Shown here piece after piece: positions 3,656 to 33,042 of a DNA stretch of 64,000 nt. A model generated the notes under the pieces. The model saw only the letters and a program-made list of their open reading frames with translations. It had not been told where the DNA came from and made no database searches. Origin of the DNA: a bacterium. Its GTDB lineage: Bacteria > Auribacterota > Auribacteria > Auribacterales > Auribacteraceae. Within the stretch, counting starts at the first letter, position 1. Each line of letters opens with the position of its first letter. The stretch spans positions 64,584 through 128,583 of the forward strand of contig JACKPL010000003.1 of NCBI GenBank assembly GCA_024233545.1, read 5' to 3'. Both the position numbers and the translations under genes were made by a program.

Positions 3656-3884
3656 ACGATATCGTTTTTATTATGGTTTAAGTTATTGTCTTAGTAATAG
3701 TTATCGTACAATTTGCTCAAAAAATAAGTGTTTTAAAAAAGGTGATGCAAAACTAATGCGGCGGTTCAATAGCATTGTTAGTTCAAAAAGGTAAAATATA
3801 CATTAAGCATCTTGTTTTTTTTTAATGGTTATGGTAGCGTGATAGTGTGCTCTATAAGGCACATAAAAATAAAGGCAAACACAT

Positions 3885-4158: not shown

Positions 4159-4179
4159 ATTAAATAGCATAAAAGAATT

Positions 4180-6267: not shown

Positions 6268-6285
6268 AATGCAGTACGGTAGGGT

Positions 6286-6885: not shown

Positions 6886-6914
6886 GGTTTCCAGTTACTG
6901 AATATGCCGACAAA

Positions 6915-14400: not shown

Positions 14401-17400
14401 ATGCTGTCGTCTCTGTCCTCGAAAAGCTTTTTACGGCAAACAGCCGGCAGTATTTTCCTCTCGCACAGTATAATGAGTATATAAATAGAGGGCTTATACT
14501 TGTTGCGCGTTCTCAAAGTGCGCAAAATAAAGAACCGTCCGCTTGGGAATACTTATTGCGTTCCACAGAGACAGAATATCAGCTCTATCGCGCTTTGCAC
14601 AACACAACATTTGAAGGTATTACATTGACCGAACAGGAAATCAGCGATGTGCAGAACGAATTGCTCGTCCGGTTTTTACGGACAAGTTTACAGCAACGGT
14701 TGCAAGAACTCAGCTTGTCTACAACGCCGGCATGGTTTAACCCTTCGGAAGACAACCTTTTAGAAATACAGGAAGATTTGGAACTGCTTGATGCGCGCCT
14801 GCTTGAAAATCCACAAACCTTGATTGAAAAACATCGCCTTCACGAGGAGTATACACAATGGCAAAATCGCAGTATCGATATACAAAACCGCACGTATTAC
14901 CGGCCTTCCATTGTTCATAAAATGATTGATGTTGCCAAAATTCCTATTTTAACCATTTTAGGTGTCATCATTACGCTTCTGACCGGATTTAGTTTGGTGC
15001 GCAAAAAGATGAAAGCTGAAAAAACGAATGGAGACTCTGATTCTTTTGCTGGAAAAATGCATAGAGCAGTGACGGTGGTTGAACGATTTATTGAGTTTAG
15101 TGAAGAACAAATTACCCCTGCACATGCCGATGAACTGCAGGAAGCAGTTCATACCCTCAACGGTGACATGAAATACCATGTCAGTTTGGCATCAACCGTC
15201 GAACTTCTTGAAAAAATTGAGGTATTCTATGAAAACACTGAACACTCAAAAGAACTTCGTGAACAACTGGCAAGCATTCATCAAACAATACAGAGATTTC
15301 ATAAAAGCAATAAACATAAGCTTATTCTTTTTGAGGATGAATCAAAGCAGAAAAGCACACAGAAAGCAACGTTTAAAACGCTTATTACCCACATGCTTTC
15401 AATGGGCAACGTCAGGAGCCAGCTTATTAGCGAGATGAAAAAAATAATCAATGTTGAGCAATTCGAAAAAGTATATAAATCGCGGCGATTAAAAATCCAG
15501 CTGTATAAAACGATTGCGCTAACGGCGAAATTTATGTTTTTTGGTATTCTCATCGCTACGCCGTTCTCGACAGTAGTAAGCGGGTTCGGATTTATTCTGA
15601 TGGTGCTTTCCCTGCATGCTTTGGATGTTATGATGTTGTATACACTGAGCCGTAATTACGATGAAATTACAAAATGGTTTGCGTTCCATTTATCCCGTGC
15701 GTCGAAATTCGATTCGCGAGTCGAAGCGCAAATCACCGCAAAATCAATTGCCGACGGCGAGGCGGCATTATGGGCAACTGGGCAAAGTGTCATCAATTTT
15801 ACCGGTGCGGTAGCAACGATGGTGTTTCTCAGCCCGTGGTATATACTTCCTTATGCGGTTTATATGATTTTCGGCATTCTTCGGTGGAGAAGCATGATAA
15901 AACAATCCGACGGGTCGACGAGCGATACGTATTACAGCCCGCTGTATGATATCGAGCACAAGGTGCAGAACCCTGCTGTGGCAGTCGCGTTTGGAGCCGT
16001 TGTCGAAACATTTATCGTAACGCAATTGCTGGAAGCGTTAACGAAAACCGGCAGTTCAAAGTTTGTCAGCGGTTTTCGAAAAGCATACCAGCAAGCCCAA
16101 ATAAGCCTGAATTATCTTACGGGGATTATTGACGACAAAAAAACCGTTACCCGTCAAACATGGGAGGACAACGGAAAAACAGTTATAAGGGCGACAACAG
16201 TTTTTAATCGTTTTAACTACAACCTCATTACCTCAAATATTGTCAATGGAGCACAGCACCCTGTAGTGAGCGATGTCACTTTGTCAATTGGGCGAGGAGA
16301 AATGGTGTATATCGATGCTTTGCCCGGGATGGGCAAAAGTACTCTGGGGCGAATGCTGGCTCTCTACCGCACTCCTCTCTCAGGATCGGTTAGCGTTGAA
16401 ACGGCAGGGCGTGATATCCAAGTAACGCCGCAAACCGTATCGCATCATTTATTGCGCCGTTTTTTTAAATATTTGAAATTCAAAGATATTCCTGTTTTAT
16501 CAGCAAAACAAATACTCCTAGAAGCAGAAAAACCGACAGGCGAATTTATTAAAATCGCCTCAAAATTTATACCCGGATTTAAAGAACGATACATGGACAG
16601 AGACCTTGGCAGTTTGGGATTTAATGAAAAGAAACTGTTGATGCTGGTTCTCTATGCCTATATCAATGACCCGAAATTTTTAGTGCTGGATGATATGTTT
16701 AGCGGCCTGCACATTGATACAGCCGAGTTCATTATGGATTTCCTCGCTTACCTTTCCCGTGAACGCGGGATAACAATTGTTGCGATTGACACCGATATTC
16801 CCAAACAAATCCGCAATCAATTTGATACAAGCTATACGTTGAGTGCAGGAAAGCTGATTTCACAGAAGGATCATAATGAGCTGATGTTGCGCCTCGATCG
16901 GGAAATCGAAGTGGAAGAAAAAAATGGTGCACGGAAAACTCTTGTGCAAACGGTTCAATCTTCCGGTGCTGACAAAAGTTCCCCACTACAGAAACCTGCT
17001 GAGAAACAAGTATCTCCTATGGATTTTTTTGACGATGAATCGCCTCTCTTCACTCAAAAAACTGCGGAAGAGGCGCAGGAATTCTCCGAACCGTTCAAAG
17101 TGTCCGCTACGGTTCCAATAGGCAGTTCCAGTGTTCCAGAACCGGATTTTTTCGATGAAGCGCCTCCTGTCTCTCCACAAAAAGAAGCTGTGGCGGAAAG
17201 GAAAAGCCAATCCAGCGTATTGGACGATTATATAAAACTGCTCCACACGACTGCTCGAAAATCTACGACGGTAGAACGGTTTAACCGGAACACCCCGCAT
17301 GATAATTTGCTTACATTCATCTATGCAGTATTAGAGCAAATCAAAGCGTACGTATCACTGAAAGACCCAAATCAGCGAATGCACATGATTCGGGCATATA

Positions 17401-18332: not shown

Positions 18333-19442
18333 CTAAGGCACTGTGGGGAAAACAACTGCTTCGCTGATACAAAGATTCACTGCTACGCGAGTATTGAGTT
18401 CCCAATTGCACTCAGGCGGCATGTCTGATAAAACCGTTTGTTTGGAAGGCAGGCTGATAGTATAACGAAACGTTGAACCTAAGAATTGTTTTTTTATAAG
18501 CACGCCGATTCCTGCTGTATGTTGCTGTACGGATAGATCGCATGGTTTTAGCATAACTTCCAGTACGGGAATCTGTCTGTATTGCATAGGGCACGGAAGG
18601 GTGCCGATTTCAGTAACAATATGGTTGCCGGAAACGTGTCCTTGTAGAAACGATGCATTTCCTATGAAGGCGGCAATGAACTTGGTTTTCGGATGCCGGT
18701 ATAAGTCCCATGGCGTATCGAATTGTTCAATGATCCCGTTGTTCATCACCAGTACGCGGTCGGCAGTATCAAGCGCTTCGTTTAGGTCGTGAGTTACCCA
18801 GACCGCTGTTGTTTTTGTTTGCTGAATAATGCTTTTCAGTTCTTGAGCAAGGTTGTTGCGCAATTCAGCATCGATATTGCTCAACGGCTCATCCAGCAAA
18901 AGAATTTTCGGATTTGGCGCTAAACTGCGCGCCAGTGCAACTCTCTGCTGTTGCCCGCCGGATAATTCATAGGGGTATCTATTCAGGAAATTTTGAATTC
19001 CAAGCATGTCTGTCAATTCGTGAAGCCTATTGGTTTGGAATTTTTTATCCATTTTTTTTATACCGAACAGAATATTTTTTTTGACGGTTAAATGCGGGAA
19101 CAAAGCATGGTCTTGAAATACCATACCGATTTTTCTCTTTTCAGGAGGGATAAAACTGTTTTTATCGAATAAAACCGAACCATTCACTCTGCACATTCCG
19201 AAGGATGTCCGTTCGAGACCTGATATCAACCGCAAAAGCGTGGTTTTGCCCGAGCCGCTCTGTCCGATAACAACGATGATTTCGCCCTTTTTTATCGCTA
19301 GAGTAACCGGCCCGAATGTGAAAGGCGGTTTATCGCATGCCGGTATCCGGTATGTATGAGCGACATCGTGCAGTTGAACATATGGTTCTGTTGTGCGGTT
19401 AACCATGGTTTCGGATAGTGTGTCTATTGCATTAAGGTTCAT
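18333..19442 (-). CDS. ABC transporter ATP-binding protein, Fe3+/polyamine (FbpC/PotA) type
   Basis: Walker A GQSGSGKTTLLRLISGLE, signature LSGGQQQRVALARSL, Walker B ILLLDEPLSNID and a C-terminal TOBE-like regulatory domain. Confidence 0.9.
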   Translation of the reverse strand: MNLNAIDTLSETMVNRTTEPYVQLHDVAHTYRIPACDKPPFTFGPVTLAIKKGEIIVVIGQSGSGKTTLLRLISGLERTSFGMCRVNGSVLFDKNSFIPPEKRKIGMVFQDHALFPHLTVKKNILFGIKKMDKKFQTNRLHELTDMLGIQNFLNRYPYELSGGQQQRVALARSLAPNPKILLLDEPLSNIDAELRNNLAQELKSIIQQTKTTAVWVTHDLNEALDTADRVLVMNNGIIEQFDTPWDLYRHPKTKFIAAFIGNASFLQGHVSGNHIVTEIGTLPCPMQYRQIPVLEVMLKPCDLSVQQHTAGIGVLIKKQFLGSTFRYTISLPSKQTVLSDMPPECNWELNTRVAVNLCISEAVVFPTVP

Positions 19443-21031
19443 GTCGCCCCTTTGTGTTGGTGGTGCATGATAGAGTATGCTAACGGCAGAGATGCCGCAA
19501 TTAGCAGTAATGCCGGTGCGGCGGCTTGTTCATAAAACCCTTCGCTTGCGGCAAGCCAAACCTTGACGGTCAGAGAATCGAATCCGGCAGGACGAAGCAA
19601 TAGTGATGCAGGGAGTTCACGCATCGAACTTAAAAACACAATGAGCCACGCACTGAAAAGAGCAGGCCTTATCAAGCGCAGGATGATGTATCCAAAGGTT
19701 TTTAATGATGAAAATCCGAGCAGACGAGCTCCTTCCTCCAATCGGCGTGAAACCTGATTTATGCCTGCACTGATCATTTGAAAACCCTGTGAAAAAAAAT
19801 GTGTCATCAATGCAATGACAATGGCGGCAATGCTGAAATTGAGCGTCGGAACAATAAAACGGAAAACCAAAGATACACCGAGTGCAACCAGTATGCCGGG
19901 CAATGCGAAGCCGAACTGTGCAACCCATGCCGAAATCCTTATCATCCGATTGTTTTTTTCACGGACGCTCAAGTAGGCAACCGGCAATGATAGAGCAACA
20001 CATGCAGTTGCGGTAACCGTTGCAATCAATACACTGTTCAGGCCTGATTGAATGAGACTATCCCAAGAGAATGCCCAGATGCTCAGTGTGCTGGCGGCAT
20101 GCGAAGCCGAGTAACTCCAATACATCAATGTTCCTATCGGCAGAACAAGTCCGGCAATGATAATGGCAATTACAAAACAGGCGGCGGGAATTCTGGCATA
20201 TTTGAGATTGATTATCGATTTGGGACGAAGATGGTTCTTTGCCGATACAAATAACCTCCTTCCGGTAAGCGTATCCTGAATATAAAGCAAGAGAAAGGTA
20301 AACAGCATCAAGAAACAACTCAGCGCATTTGCAATGGAATAATTATAACTTCCGTTTATTTCATGGTATATTGCGCTGACGAATGTCGGGTATCGCAATA
20401 AACTTACCACACCAAAGTCTGAAAGCGCGTACAATCCGGTCAATACACTTCCTGCGGTAATCGCAGGTAGCAGAAGCGGCAACGAAACGGATACCATCCG
20501 TTGCCGACGCCCCATGCCCAAACATTGTGCGGCTTCAGTGAATGTCAGGTCTATGTTATGTATTGATGCGCGGATAATAGTGTATACATAGGGATAAGAA
20601 CCGAGGATAAGTATAAATGCCGCACCGCTAAACCCATATATGGCGGGCAGTGTAACCGGTAAACCGAGAAACGAGAAAAGTTTTTCGCCCACTCCTTTGT
20701 TGCCGAAAAAGTTTACATAACACAGCGCGAGTATATAACACGGTATGATCAACGGCGTTACTAAAGCTGGCGCGAAAAATTTTTTCAACGGCAAATCTGT
20801 GCGTTCGACAAGAAATGCCAGCACGCCTCCTAATACCAATGCACCGCAGGTGACAGTCAAAGCAAGTATGACGGAGTTCACCATAAGATAAGGCACATAC
20901 CGCGTTACGGTACGGTACCAAACGGAAAAATCGACATTGGCGGCGCCGTAAATCACACAGATACACGGCAATGCCATGATACAGGCAACAATCAAACTTA
21001 TGCCGTATTTTACCGGCAGTTTTAGCGCCAT
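19439..21031 (-). CDS. iron(III) ABC transporter permease, duplicated two-domain (FbpB-like)
   Basis: 530 aa with ~12 TM and two BPD-type permease halves. One EAA-like loop reads TEAAQCLGMGRRQRMVSVSLPLL and the second EEGARLLGFSSLKTFGYIILRLIRPA. Overlaps the downstream ATPase gene by 4 nt. Confidence 0.85.
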   Translation of the reverse strand: MALKLPVKYGISLIVACIMALPCICVIYGAANVDFSVWYRTVTRYVPYLMVNSVILALTVTCGALVLGGVLAFLVERTDLPLKKFFAPALVTPLIIPCYILALCYVNFFGNKGVGEKLFSFLGLPVTLPAIYGFSGAAFILILGSYPYVYTIIRASIHNIDLTFTEAAQCLGMGRRQRMVSVSLPLLLPAITAGSVLTGLYALSDFGVVSLLRYPTFVSAIYHEINGSYNYSIANALSCFLMLFTFLLLYIQDTLTGRRLFVSAKNHLRPKSIINLKYARIPAACFVIAIIIAGLVLPIGTLMYWSYSASHAASTLSIWAFSWDSLIQSGLNSVLIATVTATACVALSLPVAYLSVREKNNRMIRISAWVAQFGFALPGILVALGVSLVFRFIVPTLNFSIAAIVIALMTHFFSQGFQMISAGINQVSRRLEEGARLLGFSSLKTFGYIILRLIRPALFSAWLIVFLSSMRELPASLLLRPAGFDSLTVKVWLAASEGFYEQAAAPALLLIAASLPLAYSIMHHQHKGAT

Positions 21032-22065
21032 TGAACTTCTTCCAAAAGGGCACGTGTTTTTTCCAGTTCTGCACCAAGCCGGTCTATTTCGATTTCCATG
21101 ATGCGAACCGCTTCTAATGCGGATGTTCCCGGAGCATTGAGTGATTCCAGCACTTCAGGGTGAGTCTCAACTGCGGGAAGCAAAGGGTATTCGAAATTAA
21201 CTTCCGCAAACAATTTTTGAGCATCAGGAGATACAAGAAAATCAATGAATTGTTCGGCATTACGCCGGTTTGCCGCATTTTTAATAATGCCGGCGCCGCA
21301 GACATTAACAATCTCTCCTCGTCCGCCGGGTTGTTGGTCGAGGTATACAATGCCTACATTCCGTAATGACGGGTCGGTTTCATTCTTTTGGAGATGATAG
21401 TAATAGTGGTTGATAAGTCCCATGGCGTATTCTCCGCGTCCCACAGCCTTGCGCACATCAGTGTGGCTGTCTGACAAAAGGGCTATATCATTATTTTTGA
21501 GTTTCAGGAGAATATCTTTGGTTTTTTCATCGCCCAACTTTATACGCAGTGCACTTACCCATGCTACCAGAGATTCGTTACCGCTGTTTACCGCGGCTAT
21601 TTTTCCGGCATATTTTGTATCGGTTAACGCATCCAGTGTTTTCGGTACAGCGGATTCATCGATCAAATCTTTGTTATAGATAATAGCGCGCGATCTGCCT
21701 GAAATACCAATCCATGATCCGTCTTGAGCTTTGAAATAGGAAGGTATTTTTGCTGTCGCTTCGGATGAATACGACGCAAAAGCTCCGTTCGATTGCAGGT
21801 ATTCCAGCGCGCCAGATTCTTTGGCTATAAATACGTCTGCTGATGGAGCAGTCAACTCGTGCAGAATCTGTTGTGCAAGCGCGCCAGATTTTCCCGCTTT
21901 TAAGACTACTTTGACACCGGTTTGCTGTTCGAAAAGCGAAATTACCGGTTCTATAAGCGGTTGTTTTCGCGCAGAAAACACAACAAGTGTATTATCTTCT
22001 GCCGCGCAATACCGTGCACAAGCAAACTGTAAAAGCACAAGAATAAGCAATAACCATTTTTTCAT
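21022..22065 (-). CDS. periplasmic Fe3+-binding protein of ABC transporter (FbpA/AfuA-like)
   Basis: Signal peptide MKKWLLLILVLLQFACARYCAA. The mature part, ..LVVFSARKQPLIEPVISLFEQQTGVKVVLKAGKSG.., is typical of family-1 solute-binding proteins for iron. Overlaps the permease gene. Confidence 0.8.
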   Translation of the reverse strand: MKKWLLLILVLLQFACARYCAAEDNTLVVFSARKQPLIEPVISLFEQQTGVKVVLKAGKSGALAQQILHELTAPSADVFIAKESGALEYLQSNGAFASYSSEATAKIPSYFKAQDGSWIGISGRSRAIIYNKDLIDESAVPKTLDALTDTKYAGKIAAVNSGNESLVAWVSALRIKLGDEKTKDILLKLKNNDIALLSDSHTDVRKAVGRGEYAMGLINHYYYHLQKNETDPSLRNVGIVYLDQQPGGRGEIVNVCGAGIIKNAANRRNAEQFIDFLVSPDAQKLFAEVNFEYPLLPAVETHPEVLESLNAPGTSALEAVRIMEIEIDRLGAELEKTRALLEEVQWR

Positions 22066-22081
22066 AATGAAACTCTCCTTA

Positions 22082-22933
22082 TTAGTTTAATTTGTAGACT
22101 ATGTCCACAGTCATTGTTAACGTTTTAGAATCAATATCTGAGGGGAATGCAGGGAACGGAGATGCTTTTTTCACCGATTGCTGAGCCGATTCATTGAGTA
22201 TTTTATAGGGGCACGGTTCTTTTACCCTCACAAAGTGCAATGCGCCTGAGGGCAATAAAGCAAACTCCAGTTTTACAACTCCTTGCAGACGCATGCGCCG
22301 TGCGGAAGAAGGGTACTTTTGAGCCGATTGTATATACTGTTTGACAGTATCTTCATAACGCATTACCATTTCGCTATGGATATCGGATACCTGTGCTTTC
22401 TGCGTTGACCGATCATCAGGAGTTTCCTGTTTTTCTTGTTTGATAGACGGTACGGCAGGATTCTCTTGTTCTTTTATAAGCGGTTCGGCCGTTTCCTCTA
22501 CAGGCAGTATCGGTTCTTCTTCAGCCGGTTCCATCGGAGCTTCGTTTGCGTCTTGTTTTGGCAGATCGGCAGTTGTTGTATTTTCGAGAACCGGTTCGGC
22601 AGATTCTTCCTTAGGAATATTGTCGGTGTCTTGAATCGGTATCTCTTCGGATTCCACTGGAATTGCAGACAGTTCTTCTGTGTCTACCGGTGTAGGTTCC
22701 GGCAGTTCGATGGGTTTTTCCAGAGGAACAAACTGTGTCTGTTCGGAGACCTGTTCAAGTTTCGGCAAAAGAGGGGGGGATTCAAATTGAATTTCCAATT
22801 CGATGTCCTCTTTTTTTGTTATGTCTTGTATTTCAAAAAAATTAAAGCTTGATAATCCTACAGCGCCTCCATGAATAAACAAGGATAGCCCAAGGCTGAT
22901 ACCTAAACCATAATTTTCCAGAAATTGTTTCAT
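22082..22933 (-). CDS. tonB: energy transducer TonB
   Basis: N-terminal anchor, a long Glu/Pro-rich spacer (EPTPVDTEELSAIPVESEEIP..) and a C-terminal TonB domain ..YPSSARRMRLQGVVKLEFALLPSGAL..V.V.. Confidence 0.85.
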   Translation of the reverse strand: MKQFLENYGLGISLGLSLFIHGGAVGLSSFNFFEIQDITKKEDIELEIQFESPPLLPKLEQVSEQTQFVPLEKPIELPEPTPVDTEELSAIPVESEEIPIQDTDNIPKEESAEPVLENTTTADLPKQDANEAPMEPAEEEPILPVEETAEPLIKEQENPAVPSIKQEKQETPDDRSTQKAQVSDIHSEMVMRYEDTVKQYIQSAQKYPSSARRMRLQGVVKLEFALLPSGALHFVRVKEPCPYKILNESAQQSVKKASPFPAFPSDIDSKTLTMTVDIVYKLN

Positions 22934-23331
22934 TGCACGGCTCCTTTTTGAGCGGCAATAATAAAATTGTTGGAACCGGCTCGTTTAGCCGTATCAATAA
23001 CCTGAACAGCCAATCCGAAATCGATATGTTCATCGGCGTTCAAAATGACTTTCTTGTGCGGCGAAAGGGAGTTCTTAAGCAATCCGAAGAGTTCGCTGAT
23101 ATCTATTTTCGTATCATTAAAATATAATTCGTTATATTGGTTTATATATATTGTCAGTTCTTGTTGTTCCTGCGGTACGGCGCTCTGTGCTTTGGGCAGT
23201 GAAATAGACAAACCGGGGTTTATTATGAAATTTGCCGTAAGCATAAAGAAAATCAGCAGGAGAAATACGATATCAATTAAAGGAGCGATATTCAATTGGC
23301 AACCGGGACGTTTTGTTCTATCAAAGTCCAT
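22930..23331 (-). CDS. exbD: biopolymer transport protein ExbD/TolR
   Basis: 133 aa, reading ..LNIAPLIDIVFLLLIFFMLTANF.., the conserved TM Asp motif, plus a periplasmic domain. Has a 4-nt overlap with tonB. Confidence 0.9.
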   Translation of the reverse strand: MDFDRTKRPGCQLNIAPLIDIVFLLLIFFMLTANFIINPGLSISLPKAQSAVPQEQQELTIYINQYNELYFNDTKIDISELFGLLKNSLSPHKKVILNADEHIDFGLAVQVIDTAKRAGSNNFIIAAQKGAVQ

Positions 23332-24010
23332 GAGTTTCTACCTTATTTTTTTTGTTTTGGATTGAAACGGCAATCGGATTGCTTATCTGTTCTATGCCGG
23401 TTTTCCGGTATTCTTTACACCATTCTAAAACAGTCGATGCCGCTTCCTTCATGTGTGCGGCGGCGGTATCGATTTTCCCTTCGAAATGATGGTAGAAAAT
23501 CATTGCGGGAATTGCCGCGACAAGACTGGCGGCGGTGGTCATCAGCGCTTCCCAAATACCGCCGGCAAGTACAGATGCGTCAACGTTGCCGCTCAGTTCC
23601 TGAATTTTCATAAATGCCTTTATCATTCCTGTGACGGTGCCGAGCAATCCGAGCAGGGGAGATATATGGGCAATTAAACTGAGTGCACGAAGATGTTTTT
23701 CCATGCGCCGCAATTCCTTGGTTCCTTCAAGATGAATAATTTTCTCCTGTGTTTCTTTTGAACGGTTTTTTGCTTCAATACATTTTTTTACGATATGAGC
23801 AACCGGCCCGGCAGAACGTGCCGCAAGGCCGGATGCCGCATCGAAGTCGCCTGATTGTATAGCGCGTTTTATCGCTTCAAAAAAAGGTTCCTTATTGATA
23901 TGTGCCCGTTTGAGATGAAACATCCGTTCTAAAACAATGGCTCCAACCACAATAGAGCACGCAATGATCGGATACATAAAAAAACCGCCGCGCATTACGA
24001 AATCAAGCAT
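23321..24010 (-). CDS. exbB: MotA/TolQ/ExbB proton channel protein
   Basis: ..ISPLLGLLGTVTGMIKAF..LAGGIWEALMTTAASLVAAIPAMIFYHHF is a classic ExbB signature. ATG at 24010 (MLDFVMRGGFFMYPII..) is preferred over the track start 24109. Confidence 0.9.
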   Translation of the reverse strand: MLDFVMRGGFFMYPIIACSIVVGAIVLERMFHLKRAHINKEPFFEAIKRAIQSGDFDAASGLAARSAGPVAHIVKKCIEAKNRSKETQEKIIHLEGTKELRRMEKHLRALSLIAHISPLLGLLGTVTGMIKAFMKIQELSGNVDASVLAGGIWEALMTTAASLVAAIPAMIFYHHFEGKIDTAAAHMKEAASTVLEWCKEYRKTGIEQISNPIAVSIQNKKNKVETHGL

Positions 24011-24158
24011 ATGTGTGTCCTTGTTACTTAATCCATTAGACTGATCCATTCCATTTTGACAGCATTTCAATAATGAGAATAAGCCAGTATAGTTCCTTAG
24101 TTCTTGCACCCTGAGTGGGGTGTATTTCTTTTTCCTTCATACTAACCGAAACCTTTTA

Positions 24159-26258
24159 TCAGAATTTAAACGTACATGACCCCCCGACTACAAAATTTCT
24201 GGCGATGCCATGAAAATTAGTGAGGGGCTCGCGGTAATTTTTATTGAAAATATTTTCAACCGCCGCATGCACTTTAAATCCTTTGATATACGGTATATCG
24301 CAACCGACGCGAACATCCCATAATCCATATCCGGGAGTATGGAGGCTGCTATCGGCTATACGCTCATTGTCGTGAACGAATTCTCCTTCAACTTCGCAGA
24401 ACAAGTTCCATAGTGTATCTTGAGGTACTTGATAACGCACGCCGGTATGGACTTCTGCCGGTGTGATTGAATTGAGGAATACATCGGTGTCTTTGTCAAA
24501 CCCTTCGGTGATTTCCAGTGTTGCGAAGGTTGAAATACCGTTCCATATATCAATTTCGATAAATCCTTCGAGCCCGTATATCTCCGCATCGGAAACATTG
24601 CGTGCTGTTGTGGTGCCGCCGGGAGGGCCGAATGGCCCAAACGGAAAAGTAACGTCTACATCAAGGTCGATGAAATCTTTGGCGTCTATATAGAAGAAAA
24701 CCAGTTCGGCTTGTATCCTGTCGTGGTCGAGGCGTGCTCCTGCTTCCATACTTTTTGCCTTTTCAGGCCTTAAGTCGGGATTGGGAACAAATGTATTAAA
24801 GGCAAAATGGGTGCCGGTTGTGTATAATTCCAGCAAACTGGGCGATCGGAATCCATGTCCGTAATTTGCAAATAGGCTGAATTCGTCAGTAACTTTAAGT
24901 ACCGTAGCGATTTTCGGATTGAACCGGCCTTCTTCATTTTCGTCTTCGCCGGATGCCTGAGAGCGGTATTTATCCCAGCGAACGCCGGGGATAATGCTTA
25001 ACCTGCCGTCAAAAAAAGTAATCTCATTTTGGATATATACACCGAGGCTTTCAAAGTCGCCGGCGGGAAAACTGCCCAGCGGCGCACTGCCGGAACCGCT
25101 GGCAGTGCGGTTGCCTTCTGCGCTGTCTTGATAATATTCTATTCCGTATGTCAGGAGGTTCTCTATACCCGCTAATTCGAAAGCGCTGGTATTTTTAAAT
25201 TCGAGGCCGTAGGTATCAATGTCGCGGTCGTCTTTGATACCTTCCGAGGAGCGGTCATGTTGTATTTCAGTTAATTGGTAATAGAAATTCCCTTTGAAAT
25301 CGGCAAATAACCCGTAACCTTCGGCATGGGATAGTTCCAAGTTTAAAAGGTTGCGGCGTGTTGTCCGGTCGGTAAGAGTATTGGAAGTACTCAACGCGGT
25401 TGAGGGGTTGACGGGAACAATCGATTTTTCGTCATACAACGTGTTGCTGATAGTAAATTTGGTTATATCCGACGGGTTGAAAACAATTTTTGAAAATAAA
25501 TTGTTGCCGGATTGTTCCGAATCGCGCAGGCGGTCGCCGTTGCTTAATTTGATGCTGTCGCCGGTATCCCAATAGGTATATGAAATAAGGTATTCCAGAT
25601 AGTCGGTGATAGTGCCGAAGATTCGTTCGGTCTGGCGGAATTCCTGATTGGCTGAATTGAAAAGAGTCCGCGTCCCGATGCCGAAGGTTTCGTTGTCGAT
25701 AAGCATGTCGCTCGGGTCTTTGGTAATAATATTGATTACCCCGCCGATGGCATCGGAGCCATAGAGCGCTGACGCCGAACCGCGCAGAACCTCAATACGC
25801 TCTATGTCGTCGATATTGAGGAATAACCGTCCTTGATGGCCGCTGAAGAAATTCATGCGTGAATCATCCTGCCGGATTTGAACGCGCCTGCCGCCCAAAC
25901 CGCGAATGGTAGGCGATTGTCCAACTTGACGAGGCCCGGAGTTTATTTGCACACCGGGAATATCTTCCAGAATATCGCCGACATCTTTTGCGCCTTTTGA
26001 GAATATTTCCTCAGAGGTTGCCACGCCGACTGATTGCGGCGAATCAAGCAATGCACGGCGGGTTTTTGTGCCGGCGTACACAACTGTTCCAAGATCGTAC
26101 CGTCCGATGTTTGCAGGCAATGGCGGTGCGGGTGTTTGCTCATTTTTCGATTCGGCATTTTCCGCAAAGAGCGGTTGATAAGAAAATGCCGTCAATGCCA
26201 TTGCTATTAGAGCAACCAACTTCTTGTGAGCGGTGCAGTTAGATGTTACTGTATTCAC
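24159..26258 (-). CDS. TonB-dependent outer-membrane receptor (possible haem/tetrapyrrole or iron-complex receptor)
   Basis: GTG start with GGAGGA 9 nt upstream. Contains a signal peptide, a plug region (..GAKDVGDILEDIPGVQI..), a barrel and a terminal ..GGSCTFKF. An FRSP..H..NPDL region is present. Confidence 0.9.
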   Translation of the reverse strand: MNTVTSNCTAHKKLVALIAMALTAFSYQPLFAENAESKNEQTPAPPLPANIGRYDLGTVVYAGTKTRRALLDSPQSVGVATSEEIFSKGAKDVGDILEDIPGVQINSGPRQVGQSPTIRGLGGRRVQIRQDDSRMNFFSGHQGRLFLNIDDIERIEVLRGSASALYGSDAIGGVINIITKDPSDMLIDNETFGIGTRTLFNSANQEFRQTERIFGTITDYLEYLISYTYWDTGDSIKLSNGDRLRDSEQSGNNLFSKIVFNPSDITKFTISNTLYDEKSIVPVNPSTALSTSNTLTDRTTRRNLLNLELSHAEGYGLFADFKGNFYYQLTEIQHDRSSEGIKDDRDIDTYGLEFKNTSAFELAGIENLLTYGIEYYQDSAEGNRTASGSGSAPLGSFPAGDFESLGVYIQNEITFFDGRLSIIPGVRWDKYRSQASGEDENEEGRFNPKIATVLKVTDEFSLFANYGHGFRSPSLLELYTTGTHFAFNTFVPNPDLRPEKAKSMEAGARLDHDRIQAELVFFYIDAKDFIDLDVDVTFPFGPFGPPGGTTTARNVSDAEIYGLEGFIEIDIWNGISTFATLEITEGFDKDTDVFLNSITPAEVHTGVRYQVPQDTLWNLFCEVEGEFVHDNERIADSSLHTPGYGLWDVRVGCDIPYIKGFKVHAAVENIFNKNYREPLTNFHGIARNFVVGGSCTFKF

Positions 26259-26261
26259 TGA

Positions 26262-26501
26262 CTATAATCCTCCATCACGAACAACGCCGGTTGACCGGTA
26301 GAGCGCGTGTTTTCTGCTGTTGATGCAAACTCCACAAATATGGTCGTTTTGGATGTTAAACCGTTTCTTTTCATTCTTTTCCAACTGAACAACCGTTCCG
26401 TTATGAATTTTTATAATCACTTCGCCGAATGAGATTGTTTCTATCGCACTGATAATTTCATCAAGGATGCAAGGCGCTATTTTTTCTTTGTGTATGCTCA
26501 T
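26262..26501 (-). CDS. DUF2292 (YezD-like) small protein with extra Cys-containing tail
   Basis: 79 aa. ..ISAIETISFGEVIIKIHNGTVVQLEKNEKKRF matches my recollection of the YezD/DUF2292 core. The tail is ..NDHICGVCINSRKH.. Its start overlaps the CobN-like stop by 1 nt. Confidence 0.6.
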   Translation of the reverse strand: MSIHKEKIAPCILDEIISAIETISFGEVIIKIHNGTVVQLEKNEKKRFNIQNDHICGVCINSRKHALYRSTGVVRDGGL

Positions 26502-29500
26502 TATGCGGTTAGCCTCCTGCGGCGTATTCCTAAAATAACTGTTATGATGAATACACAGATTATACCTAACACTATCAATGCGGCGGATAAACTGTCCTTA
26601 ATCATTTCTTTTACTTTTTCAACAGTGACGGTTTCTTCTTTTAATGTCATGCCTTCCTGTTGCTGAGAAGCGGAGGAAAACGTAGTTTCGTTGATTTTCT
26701 CTGTATACTGCTGAGCTAGGGTAGGATCGGCAATGTTTGCGATCATTTGCTGAAGTTTGATATTGTCGCAGACAAACCCACTGCACCCTGCTTGGTATTC
26801 GCTGACAAGAGAAGTATGCAGATTTGCGATAGTTTTAATCATTTCCTCCGATGGTTTCCAGTATCCTTTGCGTACTGTTTCGAGCATAACCGCTGTCATT
26901 TCCTGCAAGGCATAGGGATTAACGTCCTTAAACCGGTCGATAATATTGAGCTCATGAATATCATCGATGTATACGTCATACAGAGTATTCCACAGCGCTT
27001 CATCGACTGCCGATGGTTTCATCACGTTCCATCCGAAAGTATTGCGGAATGTTTCAGCGAATTCTTCTGCGCCCGAGGCGCCTTCTTTGAGCATTTCGTC
27101 GATGAAAACAGGATTGTAAATAGTGGAACGCGCTTCGATCCAAATTGCTTGGGTTACTCCCTGTACCGTTGCGTTATATTTGTTGCGCAGGTCGCTGAAA
27201 TATGATGCAGGGTCATTGCCGGTAACCGAACGTATTGCGGCATTAAGCCCGCCCATAAATTCATAGGTATGGTCGAGCGACAAGGGGCCGGTCATGTTGC
27301 TCGAACGAGGGTGCATGACGGTGTCAGTATGCTGAAGAGCGGCTTCAAACATACCCGGCGCGTAAACGCTCCAGCGGCCTTTAGTGTACATTGCGCCCAT
27401 ATTTTCTATGTATTGTGTAGCGATTTGGCTGTCGTTTTCCCATGCGTCGCCGTCTTCAACCAGCGGCATAATGCCGGTGCCGTATTGCCCGTTGATGCCG
27501 CCGAACACTCGAACGGTAGAAAAGGTGCGGGCTTCTTCGGGAGAAAACCCTTTTTGTTTGAGCACTTTTTCTGCGGCACCGGTTCCTCTGCGCACATAGT
27601 TTGGAAATGATTCCGTTCCCTGTGCTTCTGAGGCAATCCGAATAGCTTTTTCGATCAGGTAAATGCGCGATGCGGCAAGGTCGCGGAATTGCCCTGATGT
27701 TTGGACAAACACGTCGATGCGCGGCCTGCCGAGAGTTTCTGTAGGAATAAGCCTTACATCATATACCCTGCCGCGAGAGTTCCATACCGGTTCAACGCCC
27801 AGCAGATAGAGTATCTGAGCAATATTAACTCCCTCGCCGCGTATAAATTCGCCGCCCCACAGGCTGAATGCCACTTTTTCAGGGTAATTCCCTTTAGAAT
27901 ACAGCGATGATTCAAAAAGTTGCCCGACGAGTTTCTGTGCCGTTTTCCATGCTTCTTTTGTCGGAGTTCGTTCGGCATCGATGGAATAGATATTTTTACC
28001 GGTTGGAATAGCCGACGGGTTGATAATGGCGTCGCCGCCGGATGAAGGAGCAGTATATCCGCCGTTAAGTCCGTTCAACAACGCTTGAAGCTCCATCGCC
28101 GCTGAGCCCTGCAAATCGGCAACATATTGCTTTACCGATCGTAATGCGTCGCGATAGGTGCGGATTGCTTGTGCGCGTTCTGCTTCTTTTCCGCGTATTT
28201 CTGCAATGCGAGCCCGAGCGCCATTGATTGTATTTTTAATAAAACTGGTAGCTTGATCGCTTCTTAAAATTGCGCCGACGGCTTTTGCGTTGCCCGTGCC
28301 GGTTTGCGTTATCGCATCGGCAAGAGCGGTATTCCCGATGTAAGATTCCAAATGTCCGGCAAATGTTTCCAGTGTTTGCGTATCCCATTGGTTCAAAGCA
28401 GTTTTAAGTTTTTCCGGCTGTTGCGTAAGGAAAAGATCGGAAGTGTAGGGTTCTGAAAGTAATTGTGCCGTCAGTTCACGTTCTTTCTGTTGTTTTTCTG
28501 CTTGTATGCGTGCCTCGAAATGTGTGTCTTTAAGAAGTTCAAAAGTATATTCCCGTGCCTGTGTATTCTGCATTGTTTCAAGAAGGCTCATCATATCAGG
28601 CTGGACGAGCAAATCGATCTGCTTTTTCATTGCCGGTATCAATTGAGCAATTTTTTGTGTTTTGTCGCGGGTAACCGGATCGAGTAGCGCGGAACTTTTA
28701 TTGAATTTTGTTTCATTTTGCATTTCAAGTACGGCTTTTTTCTTTTCAGGGTCGGATGCGATGGCGAGAACCAGCGATGCAACGTGTTCTTTCTGAAATG
28801 GTTGTTCTGCTTGTGCTTGCTTCTCGTTGCCTGTCCCGAGCTGAAACATGCTTAACAGCCATTCTTCTTCAGACAATGTTTTGTTTTCTTGTTCCCATTT
28901 TTCAAGGAACGCTGAGTCTGCCGGATCGATCAACGAATCGGGTTGTGCCGTGCCTTGGAGAATTGCATTCAGGTATTCGCGGGCGTGTGTCCCATATAGA
29001 GCGTTAAACTCATGGGCGTTCTCATAGGCCGCATCAGTGGTTTTCCCTGTGAGGATGTCCATGGCGGCCATGCTGTACATAACCGGGTCAAGTGCCATGA
29101 GCAAGGCAGTTTCGTATATATCAGTTTGATCATATGGTGTGCCGAATGTATGGAAGCCTCGTATGACTTTTTCCGCTTCAACGGCATGAATATGATTATG
29201 CAGTTTCATGATCCCTTCTTCAGAAAACCGTAAGTATTGTGATGAGAGAATACCGGACGCTTCGGCAACGGTTTTATTGGCGGAAATGTATTCCAGCAGA
29301 TTTTTTTCAGATTGAAACTGCTGTTCGGCGGCCGGCGCATTAACGACGCTTTGTTGCAATGCTGTTAGCTGAGCATCAGGAATAGTTCGGCTGTATTCTG
29401 TTATTCTCTCAACCCCTTCTTGAGTTAAACGCGTAAAACGGCGGTCAATGAGTGACAAGTCGATATGAACGTCAGTTTTAATTGCCAGATCGAACAGAGA

Positions 29501-31405
29501 TTTTTCATGTTCTTCTTTGAGCATTTTGTCTTCAACATTCAAAAGCGCATGAAGCTTGTCGTGCAGAAGAGAAAAATCACCGTATAGTTCTGTTTTCATA
29601 AACGGCGGCGTGAGATGCGAAATCATGGTTGCATATATTCTTCGTTTTGCCATCATTGCTTCGCCGACATTATTTATCACATAGACATAGTGGTGCGGTA
29701 TGTCGCCGATGAGGTTATCAGCCCAATCATAATGAGAGAGCGCAACTTGTTTGCCGGGAGTAAACTCAAGGCTTCCATGTGTGCCGAAATGGATGATGGC
29801 ATCGGCATTAAAACGGTGCCTGCTCCAGAGATATGACGCTATATAGGTGTGAGTTGCGGCTTTATTTGCTCCATGGAGAAGATTGTATTCGTTTTCGCCA
29901 TATGCCGGCGGCAGAATGGGCAACAGGACAACATTGCCGAATTGAACACGAGGGATAGCAAGGTATTGTGCACCGTTGCGCGTCACATTCAGGTATTTCC
30001 CGGGAGGCGGCCCGTAGGTGTCGATTACCTCATTGAGGCGTTCTGCAGGGATATCGCTGTAAAACCATTGTTTGTATTCATCAACGGTAATGAGTTCAGG
30101 ATTCCCTTCGTTGATAAATTTTTCGATAGTGCCTTGTGCATAAATGCCCAATACCGGCCCTTCTTTGTTTATCCGTGCGGAAAATTCTTCGGCGGTTTGC
30201 GGCAGTTCGCCGGTAGTATAACCGGCATCTTTGAGCGATCGAAGCACGTTGAGCAGTGAATCGGCAACGTTCATGCCTCCGGCAACAAGCGAATTGAGCC
30301 CCGGCGCTTTGATATAATAAATTGCCACTTTTTTTTCTGCGTTGGGTTTGGTTTGCAGTGTCAACCAGTTATGAACCAATGAAACACATTTTTCCAGCCG
30401 GTCGGTAATGGCTTTAAATACATATAATCCGTTTTCATTTTTAAACTGAGCGGTGAGTACCCGCGGGTTCGTGGATCCGTCGAGTTCGGGAACCACGATG
30501 TTTTGCCCCATTTCGCCTCCTATCATTCCGCGCTGGTCAGCCATCCAATCTTCGTAGGGAACGAGAATATTCAGCGGTGCTATCAAAGGAATGTTTTGCT
30601 CTTTGAGCCATGCTACCGCTTCATCTCCTCTGCCGATTGCTAAACGGCCGTGTGGAAAATAGATAACAAGATTTGGATTTATCTCCTTAAGAAAATCAAG
30701 CCGTTTCAAAAAACCGTCTATGGGATATACGTTGATCTCCTTGTTTTCTAGCGCGGAAATCAATGCGTCAATATGTTCGCGGTTTGAGTTGCGCGGACCG
30801 GCGGTGGATGTGATAACCGCGACGCGCGGGGCATTTTCTTTATATAATCCGCTCTGCACATAAAATTGCTGGTATTGTTCATATGATTCAAAATAGTTCT
30901 CGTCACTGATGTGAAAAAAGGTGTCGTCGGGGATTGTGTGCGGTTCGCTAACGGTACTGGTAAACAGTTTTTTCCCATCGAGTGTGCGGCGTGTATAATT
31001 GAGAAGGTTTTTATAATTCTTTAATCCGCCGTACGACAAATAGTTTTTTACCGATTTCAGCTGATTGCCGGTTAAACTGGTTATGTCATTCTCATCGCTT
31101 GTTGCGGCGTGAGAGTAAACCGGCACCCCATTTTTTATGGCATTTTTTATATGTCCGCGCTGTTCTTCCGATAACGTTTTCCCATGAGCAAAAATGTACA
31201 CTGCATCGAACCGTTTCACCGAGTGCAGTTTATCTAAAGGAATACTTGATAACCGTATAAAAGGGTTTGTGTTGGCTTGTAAAAATTTTGCGTATTGGTA
31301 ATCGGCAAAATTCACCAATGCAATCCGTGTTGGGGCGAGGTATTTCTCATAGCCAATCCAACAGGCGAATATAAGAAGGCTAATAAGCAAGATTTTCTTT
31401 TTCAA
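26501..31405 (-). CDS. CobN/Mg-chelatase family protein, HmuS-like, 1,634 aa, membrane-anchored at both ends
   Basis: Hallmark CobN motifs IIHFGTHGSLEFTPGKQ (nt ~29765-29794) and IPTGKNIYSIDAERTPT (nt ~27983-28009). N-terminal TM KKKILLISLLIFACWIGY and C-terminal TM LSAALIVLGIICVFIITVILGIRRRR. Confidence 0.9.
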   Translation of the reverse strand: MKKKILLISLLIFACWIGYEKYLAPTRIALVNFADYQYAKFLQANTNPFIRLSSIPLDKLHSVKRFDAVYIFAHGKTLSEEQRGHIKNAIKNGVPVYSHAATSDENDITSLTGNQLKSVKNYLSYGGLKNYKNLLNYTRRTLDGKKLFTSTVSEPHTIPDDTFFHISDENYFESYEQYQQFYVQSGLYKENAPRVAVITSTAGPRNSNREHIDALISALENKEINVYPIDGFLKRLDFLKEINPNLVIYFPHGRLAIGRGDEAVAWLKEQNIPLIAPLNILVPYEDWMADQRGMIGGEMGQNIVVPELDGSTNPRVLTAQFKNENGLYVFKAITDRLEKCVSLVHNWLTLQTKPNAEKKVAIYYIKAPGLNSLVAGGMNVADSLLNVLRSLKDAGYTTGELPQTAEEFSARINKEGPVLGIYAQGTIEKFINEGNPELITVDEYKQWFYSDIPAERLNEVIDTYGPPPGKYLNVTRNGAQYLAIPRVQFGNVVLLPILPPAYGENEYNLLHGANKAATHTYIASYLWSRHRFNADAIIHFGTHGSLEFTPGKQVALSHYDWADNLIGDIPHHYVYVINNVGEAMMAKRRIYATMISHLTPPFMKTELYGDFSLLHDKLHALLNVEDKMLKEEHEKSLFDLAIKTDVHIDLSLIDRRFTRLTQEGVERITEYSRTIPDAQLTALQQSVVNAPAAEQQFQSEKNLLEYISANKTVAEASGILSSQYLRFSEEGIMKLHNHIHAVEAEKVIRGFHTFGTPYDQTDIYETALLMALDPVMYSMAAMDILTGKTTDAAYENAHEFNALYGTHAREYLNAILQGTAQPDSLIDPADSAFLEKWEQENKTLSEEEWLLSMFQLGTGNEKQAQAEQPFQKEHVASLVLAIASDPEKKKAVLEMQNETKFNKSSALLDPVTRDKTQKIAQLIPAMKKQIDLLVQPDMMSLLETMQNTQAREYTFELLKDTHFEARIQAEKQQKERELTAQLLSEPYTSDLFLTQQPEKLKTALNQWDTQTLETFAGHLESYIGNTALADAITQTGTGNAKAVGAILRSDQATSFIKNTINGARARIAEIRGKEAERAQAIRTYRDALRSVKQYVADLQGSAAMELQALLNGLNGGYTAPSSGGDAIINPSAIPTGKNIYSIDAERTPTKEAWKTAQKLVGQLFESSLYSKGNYPEKVAFSLWGGEFIRGEGVNIAQILYLLGVEPVWNSRGRVYDVRLIPTETLGRPRIDVFVQTSGQFRDLAASRIYLIEKAIRIASEAQGTESFPNYVRRGTGAAEKVLKQKGFSPEEARTFSTVRVFGGINGQYGTGIMPLVEDGDAWENDSQIATQYIENMGAMYTKGRWSVYAPGMFEAALQHTDTVMHPRSSNMTGPLSLDHTYEFMGGLNAAIRSVTGNDPASYFSDLRNKYNATVQGVTQAIWIEARSTIYNPVFIDEMLKEGASGAEEFAETFRNTFGWNVMKPSAVDEALWNTLYDVYIDDIHELNIIDRFKDVNPYALQEMTAVMLETVRKGYWKPSEEMIKTIANLHTSLVSEYQAGCSGFVCDNIKLQQMIANIADPTLAQQYTEKINETTFSSASQQQEGMTLKEETVTVEKVKEMIKDSLSAALIVLGIICVFIITVILGIRRRRLTA

Positions 31406-31427: not shown

Positions 31428-31760
31428 TTATTCGGGGATATAAATTATTTCACCATTTTCCAGCTGATACGCAGTGCCGACTTTTTTTCCCCTGCCGCGC
31501 CCCGTTCCTTCGGCGGCTTTATATTTCGTGATCTTTTCCCCTCGTTTCATAATAATTTCCATATCATCTTTACCGGGATTTTTTACCATCGTCATTTCAT
31601 CGTGAGTGAAAAGTTCTGTTAAGTTCAAATGTGTAACGAGAGCGACCATCAAAGCGACGGCGAAAACCATGCCTAGATCGAATAGGTTAGCCATACCTGC
31701 TAAGGGATCATTGTCGAATTCGTCTGTCAGTATTAAATGATGTTTGCTGTAGTTTCGCAT
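31428..31760 (-). CDS. DUF2149-like single-pass protein (ExbD/TolR-like topology)
   Basis: 110 aa. ..DNDPLAGMANLFDLGMVFAVALMVALV.. is a single TM with an Asp at its cytoplasmic edge, followed by a small soluble domain. It is encoded directly after a MotA/ExbB-like gene with a 28-nt overlap. Confidence 0.6.
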   Translation of the reverse strand: MRNYSKHHLILTDEFDNDPLAGMANLFDLGMVFAVALMVALVTHLNLTELFTHDEMTMVKNPGKDDMEIIMKRGEKITKYKAAEGTGRGRGKKVGTAYQLENGEIIYIPE

Positions 31761-32359
31761 GTCTTTCCTATTTCGTGTTGAGCAAGTTGCAGGATATAGC
31801 GCAAATGTGAAATATCTTCAACAAACCATCGCTTTTTTATCAAATGGGTAATGAATCCGACTGCGCCGACAAAAATCCCTACGACTGTGGTAGAGAAGGC
31901 TACCTGCATATTAACCGCCATCGATGCGATGTTGCCCACCGCCAATCCGACAAGAGCTGGCCCCATGGGTATCAGTGTTCCCATCAATCCGAGCATAGGG
32001 CCGAGCCGGACAAGCGTTTGGGACGATTCAAGCGATTTTGCGCCGGCTATCTCATAATCATCGATGATTTTATCTGCGTGCGGTGATTGCCAGCGGACAC
32101 GTTTCATGTTTGCCAGCGGCAGAGATAAGTGGTTTTCTGCTGAGAGCTCAGATTCGAAAACAATTGATTGTACCGGTGTATGCCGGAGTGTTTCCAGCAG
32201 GTCGGAAAATTTTTTCCCGTTCGAAAGGCGATGCATATAAATTCCGTAAAATGAACCTGCCATAAATAATGCCCAAATGAAACACCACAATAGCGCAATG
32301 ATGACTGGAATAAGGAGTCCGGAAGAAATCCAAAACAAACTGTTTGTTAATATGCTCAT
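31733..32359 (-). CDS. MotA/TolQ/ExbB-family proton-channel-like protein (second copy, divergent)
   Basis: 208 aa. ..LVRLGPMLGLMGTLIPMGPALVGL..MQVAFSTTVVGIFVGAVGFI resembles the ExbB/TolQ channel helices. Overlaps both neighbours. Confidence 0.7.
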   Translation of the reverse strand: MSILTNSLFWISSGLLIPVIIALLWCFIWALFMAGSFYGIYMHRLSNGKKFSDLLETLRHTPVQSIVFESELSAENHLSLPLANMKRVRWQSPHADKIIDDYEIAGAKSLESSQTLVRLGPMLGLMGTLIPMGPALVGLAVGNIASMAVNMQVAFSTTVVGIFVGAVGFITHLIKKRWFVEDISHLRYILQLAQHEIGKTCETTANII

Positions 32360-33042
32360 TCTGTCCCCTTCGATTGTTTATAGGCTGTTATAAGATATCC
32401 TGTGCCGGCGATTACTCCCATGCCGAACAGTAGTAATACAGTATTGAAAAGGCTTGTCTGCGTGGAAATGTTCACCATAGGCAATCCACTTATTACCATA
32501 GGGGAAAACATTGCAATGAGCATCTGAGCGAAAACGATAAGCGCTTTCAATTCCACTCGCCATTCCCAGCGGGGCAGAAGGTGTTTGAACAACCATGCTC
32601 CACCGAAAAGAAGGATAAACAGCCCGAAAGAGATAAAAAAAGAAATAAACGAATACGAGTATCCTTGGATTAGGTTGAACATCATGGTTTGAGCGCATAA
32701 AATTCCCAAAAGAAAAATTCCGGAAGGAAATAAGCTTAAATACTCTATTCGCCGTGATTTGGCCTGCAGGCATCGGGTGTGTATCAAAGCGAATGCCGTT
32801 GCCATTACGACAATTGCCTCACCTATTTGATAAGCACAGAATCCCGTTATCATTTCGTAATTCATAAACCATTGGTGTAACAGCCTCAGGCGTATCCTTG
32901 CTGAAAGAAACGCAAATGAAAAGTTAAAAATAGAAATCCCTAAACACATCAGAAAATGCCCTCTTGTTGTTTTTGTCAGGGAAATATTTATGAGGGTATG
33001 AATAAGCCCTACAATAATGAGTGCCGTAAATAATAACCACAT
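32356..33042 (-). CDS. polytopic membrane protein, first gene of the operon (DUF2162-like position; unassigned)
   Basis: 228 aa with 6-7 hydrophobic segments. ATG at 33040-33042 and a 4-nt overlap with the next gene. I recognise no motif with confidence. Confidence 0.6.
   Translation of the reverse strand: MWLLFTALIIVGLIHTLINISLTKTTRGHFLMCLGISIFNFSFAFLSARIRLRLLHQWFMNYEMITGFCAYQIGEAIVVMATAFALIHTRCLQAKSRRIEYLSLFPSGIFLLGILCAQTMMFNLIQGYSYSFISFFISFGLFILLFGGAWLFKHLLPRWEWRVELKALIVFAQMLIAMFSPMVISGLPMVNISTQTSLFNTVLLLFGMGVIAGTGYLITAYKQSKGTE

Follow-up and report, generated by a model that had tools for sequence, protein, structure and literature searches.

To our knowledge, HmuS is the only biological heme de-chelatase demonstrated so far, and work on it has been confined to Bacteroidota of the gut and the mouth. 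The enzyme of Bacteroides thetaiotaomicron, a protein of 1,469 residues with N- and C-terminal anchor helices and an insertion in domain IV that has no counterpart in CobN or ChlH, converts heme to protoporphyrin IX and Fe(II) in an NADH-dependent, ATP-independent reaction (Nath et al., EMBO J 2025, PMC12583661). The HmuS proteins of Porphyromonas gingivalis and Bacteroides fragilis have the same anchors, the same periplasmic location and a domain IV described as "nearly twice as long" (Smiga/Olczak and colleagues, PMC13227078). Proteins of this family are periplasmic, have a size of about 1,450 to 1,470 amino acids (aa) and possess an enlarged domain IV (PMC12583661, PMC13227078); the two studied HmuS proteins are 47% identical to each other (PMC13227078). 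In this study, a gene was analysed which very probably encodes a periplasmic heme de-chelatase, namely a long form of HmuS within the CobN/ChlH (class I chelatase) superfamily. It is located in a 64,000-nucleotide stretch of DNA, referred to here as the window, from an uncultured bacterium of the Auribacterota (Auribacteraceae; assembly GCA_024233545.1, contig JACKPL010000003.1, positions 64,584 to 128,583 of the forward strand). All positions given below are those of the window, and all features of the gene and its cluster lie on the minus strand.

Relationship of the protein to HmuS

The hmuS-like gene (26501..31405) is a single unbroken open reading frame of 1,634 codons with a TTG start directly past the stop of the preceding gene and an AAGGAG ribosome-binding site 9 nt upstream. 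The plus-strand reading of the same interval is riddled with stops; the strand was left unstated in the original prediction, an annotation generated by a model from the DNA letters, in which the product was taken for a CobN-family protein of unusual length, anchored at both ends and lacking an AAA+ partner. The peptides quoted there were all found in the translation, and the two motifs described as about 590 residues apart start at residues 537 (IIHFGTHG) and 1133 (IPTGKNIYSID), a spacing of 596 aa.

The protein matches Pfam CobN-Mg_chel (PF02514) with E = 1e-286. The membership in the CobN superfamily originally proposed is confirmed by this match, and the size above that of canonical CobN and ChlH was borne out by the block-spacing alignment described below. 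All nine NCBIfam CobN/BchH equivalogs, on the other hand, stayed far under their cut-offs (best 685 bits vs 1248). The closest solved structure is the HmuS heme dechelatase of B. thetaiotaomicron (PDB 9D26/9P4S; E = 0, 1134 bits), while the same query gave 378 bits with ChlH and 318 bits with CobN. Sequence identity to the B. thetaiotaomicron enzyme is 44.9% over 1,293 aligned residues, close to the value of 47% for the two HmuS proteins already studied. The 120 best database matches and the window protein were aligned with MAFFT (121 sequences in total), and in a FastTree phylogeny of this set together with B. thetaiotaomicron HmuS (779 core columns, rooted with Synechocystis ChlH), the latter nests within the set that contains the window protein. 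With the characterised enzyme, the protein has in common the six-domain CobN-like body, a transmembrane helix at each end, the lack of an AAA+ partner, an identity of about 45% and a gene encoded alongside hmuR, hmuT, hmuU and hmuV. ChlH/BchH and CobN (PDB 4ZHJ and 7C6O) share the PF02514 fold, the HFGTHG motif and domain III and V cores of about 30% identity, but are soluble cytoplasmic proteins of 1,200–1,350 aa, have neither C-terminal extension nor transmembrane helices, and need ATP-driven ChlI/ChlD or CobS/CobT motors. The analysis establishes the homology to HmuS and the shared sequence motifs, signals of membrane topology, a predicted fold for the insertion, the synteny and the absence of AAA+ partners; the reading as an anomalous CobN is superseded.

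The residues of the active-site cleft were located by alignment to 9D26. The HFGTHG motif (residues 539–544; 29774..29791) contains His543, equivalent to the catalytically essential His-538 of B. thetaiotaomicron and invariant in all 120 homologues. Glu582 corresponds to E577. Domain V starts with IPTGKNIYSID (residues 1133–1143; 27977..28009). The sequence LSLDHTYEFMGG (residues 1375–1386; 27248..27283) is an exact match to the HmuS-specific motif LSLDHxxEFMGG, at which the ChlH sequence differs. Within this motif, Asp1378, His1379 and Glu1382 are equivalent to D1208, H1209 and E1212; the counterparts of these three residues and of E577 are invariant in the homologue alignment. The two motifs and the His/carboxylate dyads are therefore held in common with B. 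thetaiotaomicron HmuS, as is His252 (30650..30652), which corresponds to His-254, the residue serving there as the second axial ligand to the head/neck heme, and is kept in 96 of the 97 homologues with a long domain IV (long forms, see below). The first axial ligand, Met-79 in B. thetaiotaomicron, is replaced by His74 (31184..31186). This column varies among the 97 long forms (Arg in 44, Met in 35, His in 15), so a head/neck heme site is no conserved requirement.

In a hydropathy analysis with a 19-residue Kyte-Doolittle window, only residues 5–23 (1.68) and 1600–1630 (maximum 3.22) reached transmembrane grade. The N-terminal anchor (residues 5–23; 31337..31393) is preceded by KKK, is aligned with the N-terminal transmembrane helix of B. 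thetaiotaomicron HmuS and is present in 103 of the 121 homologues. The C-terminal one (residues 1606–1627) is followed by an RRRR tail (residues 1628–1631; helix and tail 26513..26590) and was found in 119/121, both anchors together in 101/121. The hydrophobic anchors noted at both ends in the original prediction are thus of transmembrane grade and flanked by basic residues. According to the positive-inside rule, both termini would lie in the cytoplasm, while a body of about 1,580 residues would face the periplasm. The HmuS-specific C-terminal extension carries the cysteine pair CSGFVC (residues 1541–1546; 26768..26785), which is identical in B. thetaiotaomicron HmuS, occurs in 101 of the 121 homologues and has no counterpart in ChlH, which ends before this point. 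The extension is collinear with that of B. thetaiotaomicron, consisting of (S/G)CSGFVCDN, a linker, the transmembrane helix and a polybasic tail (RKRRK in B. thetaiotaomicron).

As claimed originally, no AAA+ chelatase partner is encoded in the operon. The search was extended to the genome outside the window (2.44 Mb, 78.75% complete): in this assembly, neither BchI/ChlI (best 24.7 bits vs a cut-off of 467) nor BchD/ChlD (best 38 bits vs 500) was found, and CobS gave zero matches. The only protein with an Mg_chelatase domain is the universal ComM-like one. Within the assembled genome, the missing partner is real, and for an HmuS-type protein it is expected. What had been regarded as odd for a CobN, namely the size, the anchors at either end and the lack of a motor, belongs to the published hallmarks of the HmuS family and is no anomaly. 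What is kept from the earlier interpretation is HmuS itself, which had been named among the proteins to be compared, while the idea of an anomalous CobN is dropped.

The enlarged domain IV

The blocks alignable to ChlH are separated by 447 aa in the window protein, compared to 234 aa in B. thetaiotaomicron HmuS and approximately 170 aa in Synechocystis ChlH. In the MAFFT alignment with the 120 homologues, the extra length resolves into two components, residues 828–1068 and approximately 665–727. The first one (28202..28924) is a Q/E/K-rich region at the site of the methionine-rich insertion of B. thetaiotaomicron, its flanks aligning to B. thetaiotaomicron residues 755 and 898. While the position in domain IV is identical, the insertion of B. 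thetaiotaomicron comprises 120 aa, is disordered and contains 17.5% methionine (21/120), whereas that of the window protein comprises 241 aa, is predicted to be folded and all-alpha, is rich in Q, E, K, A and L and has a methionine content of 2.5%.

The majority of the homologues (97 of 120; proteins of about 1,570 aa) are long forms, most of them with an insertion of nearly constant length (233–256 aa). They originate from Cytophagia, Bacteroidales, Omnitrophota, Verrucomicrobia, Planctomycetota and Acidobacteria metagenome-assembled genomes. Among the others are 13 short forms with an insertion of 12–71 aa, which are scattered over the tree, and 8 mid forms (128–195 aa). The scattered distribution of the short forms suggests that the insertion might have been lost repeatedly. 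Over the 121 homologues, the insertion spans 12 to 544 aa. The longest one, with 7% methionine, belongs to the sister of B. thetaiotaomicron HmuS in the tree (P0045). A920, P924 and M926 of the insertion are conserved at 93–97%.

With AlphaFold2 (alignment of 82 rows), the insertion alone was modelled as approximately 14 helices with a mean predicted local distance difference test score (pLDDT) of 92.7 and a predicted template modelling score (pTM) of 0.78. Within a larger model of domain IV, the insertion reached pLDDT values of 90–98. A Foldseek search with the insertion alone revealed no relative in the PDB (best E = 1.8); matches to globins and helical repeats (E ≥ 3, template modelling score < 0.26) were discarded as noise. 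The larger domain IV model recognised HmuS domain IV only. A phmmer search of the insertion against 1.84 billion representatives yielded 24 matches. Those which could be classified are HmuS-like proteins, with the insertion at about 775–1030, or CobN fragments; five short matches (173–347 aa) are without Pfam domain, and no other architecture was found among the 24.

Judged from these models and searches, residues 828–1068 are a predicted folded domain internal to the family rather than a lineage-specific low-complexity spacer. The original prediction of a possible lineage-specific insertion thus holds only in part. The refuting condition named there, a spacer conserved in ordinary CobN proteins, does not apply: the spacer is missing from ordinary CobN and ChlH, and the region is an insertion relative to these proteins. 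It is not lineage-specific, because it is common to 97 of the 120 homologues from several phyla.

The second component, a segment overlooked originally (residues ~665–727; 29225..29413), is found in none of the 120 homologues and is also absent from B. thetaiotaomicron HmuS. It is predicted to be helical with low confidence (pLDDT 54–68). A test for a tandem duplication as its origin detected no similarity of the segment to the one following it. This private insertion of about 63 aa accounts for the size of 1,634 aa compared to about 1,572 aa.

Gene cluster, related loci and host distribution

The hmuS-like gene is part of a minus-strand cluster in the order T-like, HmuU, HmuV, HmuS, DUF2292, receptor, ExbB-ExbD-TonB and binding protein-permease-ATPase. 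The first gene (32356..33042) encodes an HmuT-like membrane protein of 228 aa without Pfam match; open reading frames of 186–230 aa, likewise without Pfam match, are located in the hmuT position of four related loci (L010, L011, L020 and L021). It is followed by an hmuU-like gene for a MotA/ExbB-family protein of 208 aa (31733..32359; PF01618, 2.9e-09) and an hmuV-like gene for a DUF2149 protein of 110 aa (31428..31760; PF09919, 8.4e-33). Downstream of hmuS, a DUF2292 mini-protein of 79 aa is encoded (26262..26501; PF10055, 3.5e-14), the start of which overlaps the hmuS stop by 1 nt. This mini-protein, located between hmuS and the receptor gene, has the C-terminal tail ...HICGVCINSRKH, and DUF2292 open reading frames of 48–50 aa are found in the same slot of the two nearest homologous loci (L010 14719–14865 and L020 14776–14928). 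It looks like a conserved, undescribed component of this type of operon.

The gene product of 24159..26258 (699 aa) is an HmuR-like TonB-dependent heme receptor. It exceeds the cut-off of the NCBIfam model TonB-hemin (TIGR01785; 403 bits vs 316.85), while only 105–106 bits were obtained with the BtuB models (cut-offs 600–836). Canonical ExbB (23321–24109), ExbD (22930–23331) and TonB (22082–22933) follow, together 22082..24109. The operon therefore has two proton-channel modules, namely this one after the receptor and a divergent MotA/ExbB-like plus DUF2149 pair before hmuS (31428–32359). The cluster ends with an ABC importer of FbpABC-like architecture (18333..22065), composed of a binding protein (21022–22065), a fused double permease (19439–21031) and an ATPase (18333–19442). 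An Rfam scan of the window revealed neither a cobalamin nor any other riboswitch; the only Rfam match was the bacterial large signal recognition particle RNA (RF01854, 156 bits) at 3887–4156 on the plus strand.

Compared to B. thetaiotaomicron, the gene order T-U-V-S-DUF2292-R is different, the cluster has its own ExbBD-TonB and ABC importer, HmuY is missing, and the host is an uncultured lineage outside the Bacteroidota, the relatives of which do not have the gene. The hmu systems of P. gingivalis and B. fragilis are alike in the inner-membrane anchor, the predicted periplasmic orientation, the enlarged domain IV, the proposed NADH-linked heme metabolism and the presence of an hmu operon; they differ in the size of HmuS (about 1,450 aa), its Met-rich domain IV and the order hmuYRSTUV (PMC13227078).

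Synteny was assessed on the contigs encoding homologues, since a single-protein search for related loci gave one partial Flavobacteriaceae locus only. Of the homologous loci inspected, the two nearest, on an ENA metagenome contig and in an Omnitrophota metagenome-assembled genome, also have the core T-U-V-S-DUF2292-R. In both, a flavodoxin gene is located at most three genes upstream of this core, and a third locus also has one. In total, flavodoxin is encoded in or just upstream of three of the five long-form hmuS clusters inspected (L010 7175–7615, L020 7835–8272 and L021 2893–3411). In the literature, flavodoxin has been suggested as electron donor of HmuS. A Fulvivirgaceae genome harbors a long-form HmuS inside a canonical R-HmuY-S-T-U-V operon, so that the long form is linked to genuine hmu systems. 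An Acidobacteria contig (L012) encodes both a long-form HmuS-like protein (1,596 aa; 2412–7202) and a CobN-like protein (1,355 aa; 12502–16569); the latter gene is preceded by that of a TonB-dependent receptor, and no hmuU/V was found in the part of the contig examined. In the genome of the window itself, a half-size CobN-like protein is encoded on contig C2 (L003 343–783 and 925–2946), which is 42% identical to residues 1144–1572 of the window protein.

DUF2149 was found in two of the 41 genomes sampled from the phylum of the window and adjoins a CobN-like gene in both cases. In a sample of 301 Bacteroidota genomes it is present in seven, in six of them at a distance of no more than about 2 kb from an HmuS-like gene. 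CobN-family matches were obtained for 77 genomes of this sample, mostly with BchH-like copies of about 1,280 aa only; apart from the seven mentioned, DUF2149 was detected in none of the Bacteroidota genomes with BchH-like copies only. The sole DUF2149 gene of the sample for which no HmuS-like gene was detected (G052:C35:9720–9983) is from a genome whose best CobN-family matches are BchH-like, with 30–32% identity.

A set of 40 genomes belonging to the family or phylum of the host yielded no orthologue of the hmuS-like gene, and the GC profile is uniform without a compositional island around the operon. Taken together, this suggests a horizontal acquisition that is either old or compositionally matched.

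Proposed function and alternative readings

Several observations weigh against a heme de-chelatase of the HmuS type. The identity to B. thetaiotaomicron HmuS is below the 50% cut-off applied by the authors of the HmuS structure (Nath et al. 2025). Further features listed by these authors as family-defining are not retained either: the domain IV insertion is not methionine-rich, Met-79 is replaced by His74, and three of the five "strictly conserved" cleft residues differ (S1014 to G1184, Q1198 to S1368 and W1202 to T1372), while S1067 and S1199 (B. thetaiotaomicron numbering) are retained. A complete six-gene hmuYRSTUV operon is not present: R, S, a T-like protein, U and V are encoded in another order, and HmuY (PF14064) was not found in the 78.75%-complete genome. 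At this completeness, absences fall short of proof. Iron is a putative substrate of the ABC importer, the architecture of which is FbpABC-like; all its NCBIfam matches are under cut-off. The gene, missing from the 40 related genomes, is probably a horizontal acquisition and might act on another tetrapyrrole, and the de-chelatase activity of this protein, as that of the long forms in general, is a predicted one.

These substitutions in particular might indicate a BtuS-like protein or another HmuS paralogue for a different metallotetrapyrrole, for instance one which removes or inserts cobalt during corrinoid salvage or one acting on another metalloporphyrin. The cleft residues predicted to hold the propionates are among those which differ (G1184, S1368, T1372), as is the axial ligand, HmuY was not found in the genome, and HmuS-like paralogues with presumed other functions have been described (PMC13227078). 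Such a substrate is nevertheless unlikely, given that the receptor exceeds the cut-off of TonB-hemin but not those of the BtuB models, that no cobalamin riboswitch was found in the window, that LSLDHxxEFMGG is matched exactly and that long-form homologues are also encoded by canonical hmu operons with HmuY. Moreover, the variant residues G and S represent the majority state among the relatives, including those closest to B. thetaiotaomicron in length. A function mainly as periplasmic heme chaperone, which would receive heme from HmuR and deliver it to HmuTUV as a transporter of the inner membrane with little or no de-chelation, has been discussed for P. gingivalis HmuS (PMC13227078). The bis-His pair His74/His252 of the head/neck site could grip heme tightly, and hmuTUV is located directly before hmuS. 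This function is considered highly unlikely here, because all cleft residues shown or proposed to be necessary for de-chelation are invariant, the operon ends in an importer of iron-type architecture and not in a heme ABC system, and the head/neck ligand is Arg in 44 of the 97 long forms, so that conservation of this site is not required. Finally, a CobN/ChlH chelatase subunit of the ordinary kind, the AAA+ partners of which would be encoded in the unassembled part of the genome, could be reconciled with the Pfam match and the genome completeness of 78.75%, yet it is extremely improbable and close to refuted. The identity as CobN or ChlH is rejected on equivalog scores far below every CobN/BchH cut-off, on the topology with a transmembrane anchor at either end and a cysteine pair predicted to be periplasmic, and on the heme-receptor context; the HmuS-specific motif and tail as well as the failure to detect ChlI, ChlD and CobS in the assembly also argue against it.

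For the protein as an HmuS-type de-chelatase, homology to the B. thetaiotaomicron enzyme and the genomic context point to heme as the substrate and to de-chelation as the reaction, and the proposals for the electron source and for the roles of the inserted domain and of HmuTUV have the same basis. A helix at each end would tether the protein to the inner membrane, with the six-domain body of approximately 1,580 residues in the periplasm. Heme would enter via the adjacent HmuR-type receptor, to which ExbB-ExbD-TonB of the same operon would supply the energy. The dyads His543/Glu582 and Asp1378-His1379/Glu1382 of the central cleft might protonate the porphyrin, upon which Fe(II) would be released and protoporphyrin IX left. 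As in B. thetaiotaomicron HmuS, reducing equivalents would be needed, but neither ATP nor an AAA+ motor. The ABC importer, co-transcribed with hmuS, might then take up the freed iron. An enlarged domain IV accounts for the additional size of the protein, consisting of the predicted all-alpha domain of about 240 aa with the near-invariant Met926 and the private insertion of about 63 aa.

A participation of HmuU/V in the function of HmuS rather than in that of the receptor is hypothetical, since the soluble B. thetaiotaomicron enzyme is active in vitro without these proteins (PMC12583661). It is compatible with the data, because DUF2149 tracks HmuS and a separate ExbBD-TonB is present. A more far-reaching combination of ideas is speculative and, as a whole, rather doubtful: the domain of about 240 aa might be the ancestral structured form of the Met-rich insertion of Bacteroides and act as a heme-capturing lid feeding the head/neck or cleft site, while the HmuU/HmuV proton-channel pair, which accompanies HmuS-like genes in a nearly one-to-one manner, might replace the AAA+ motor by coupling the proton-motive force via the membrane helices of HmuS, ExbBD-TonB serving the receptor.

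The system itself is known; new are the uncharacterised long-form domain IV, the private 63-aa insertion, the substitutions of heme ligand and cleft residues, the unusual host lineage and the gene order. A better annotation of the gene would be HmuS-type de-chelatase instead of cobaltochelatase CobN. With this assignment, the locus would extend the HmuS family to an uncultured lineage outside the Bacteroidota. Most environmental relatives appear to have a structured domain of about 240 aa instead of the disordered Met-rich loop deemed a hallmark of the family, and the supposed axial Met varies, which would narrow the essential features to the pair of His dyads, the membrane anchors and the tail with CSGFVC. 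The recurrence of flavodoxin beside long-form clusters provides a testable lead on the electron source, and the tight linkage of HmuU/V to HmuS despite a separate ExbBD-TonB provides one on the role of HmuTUV.

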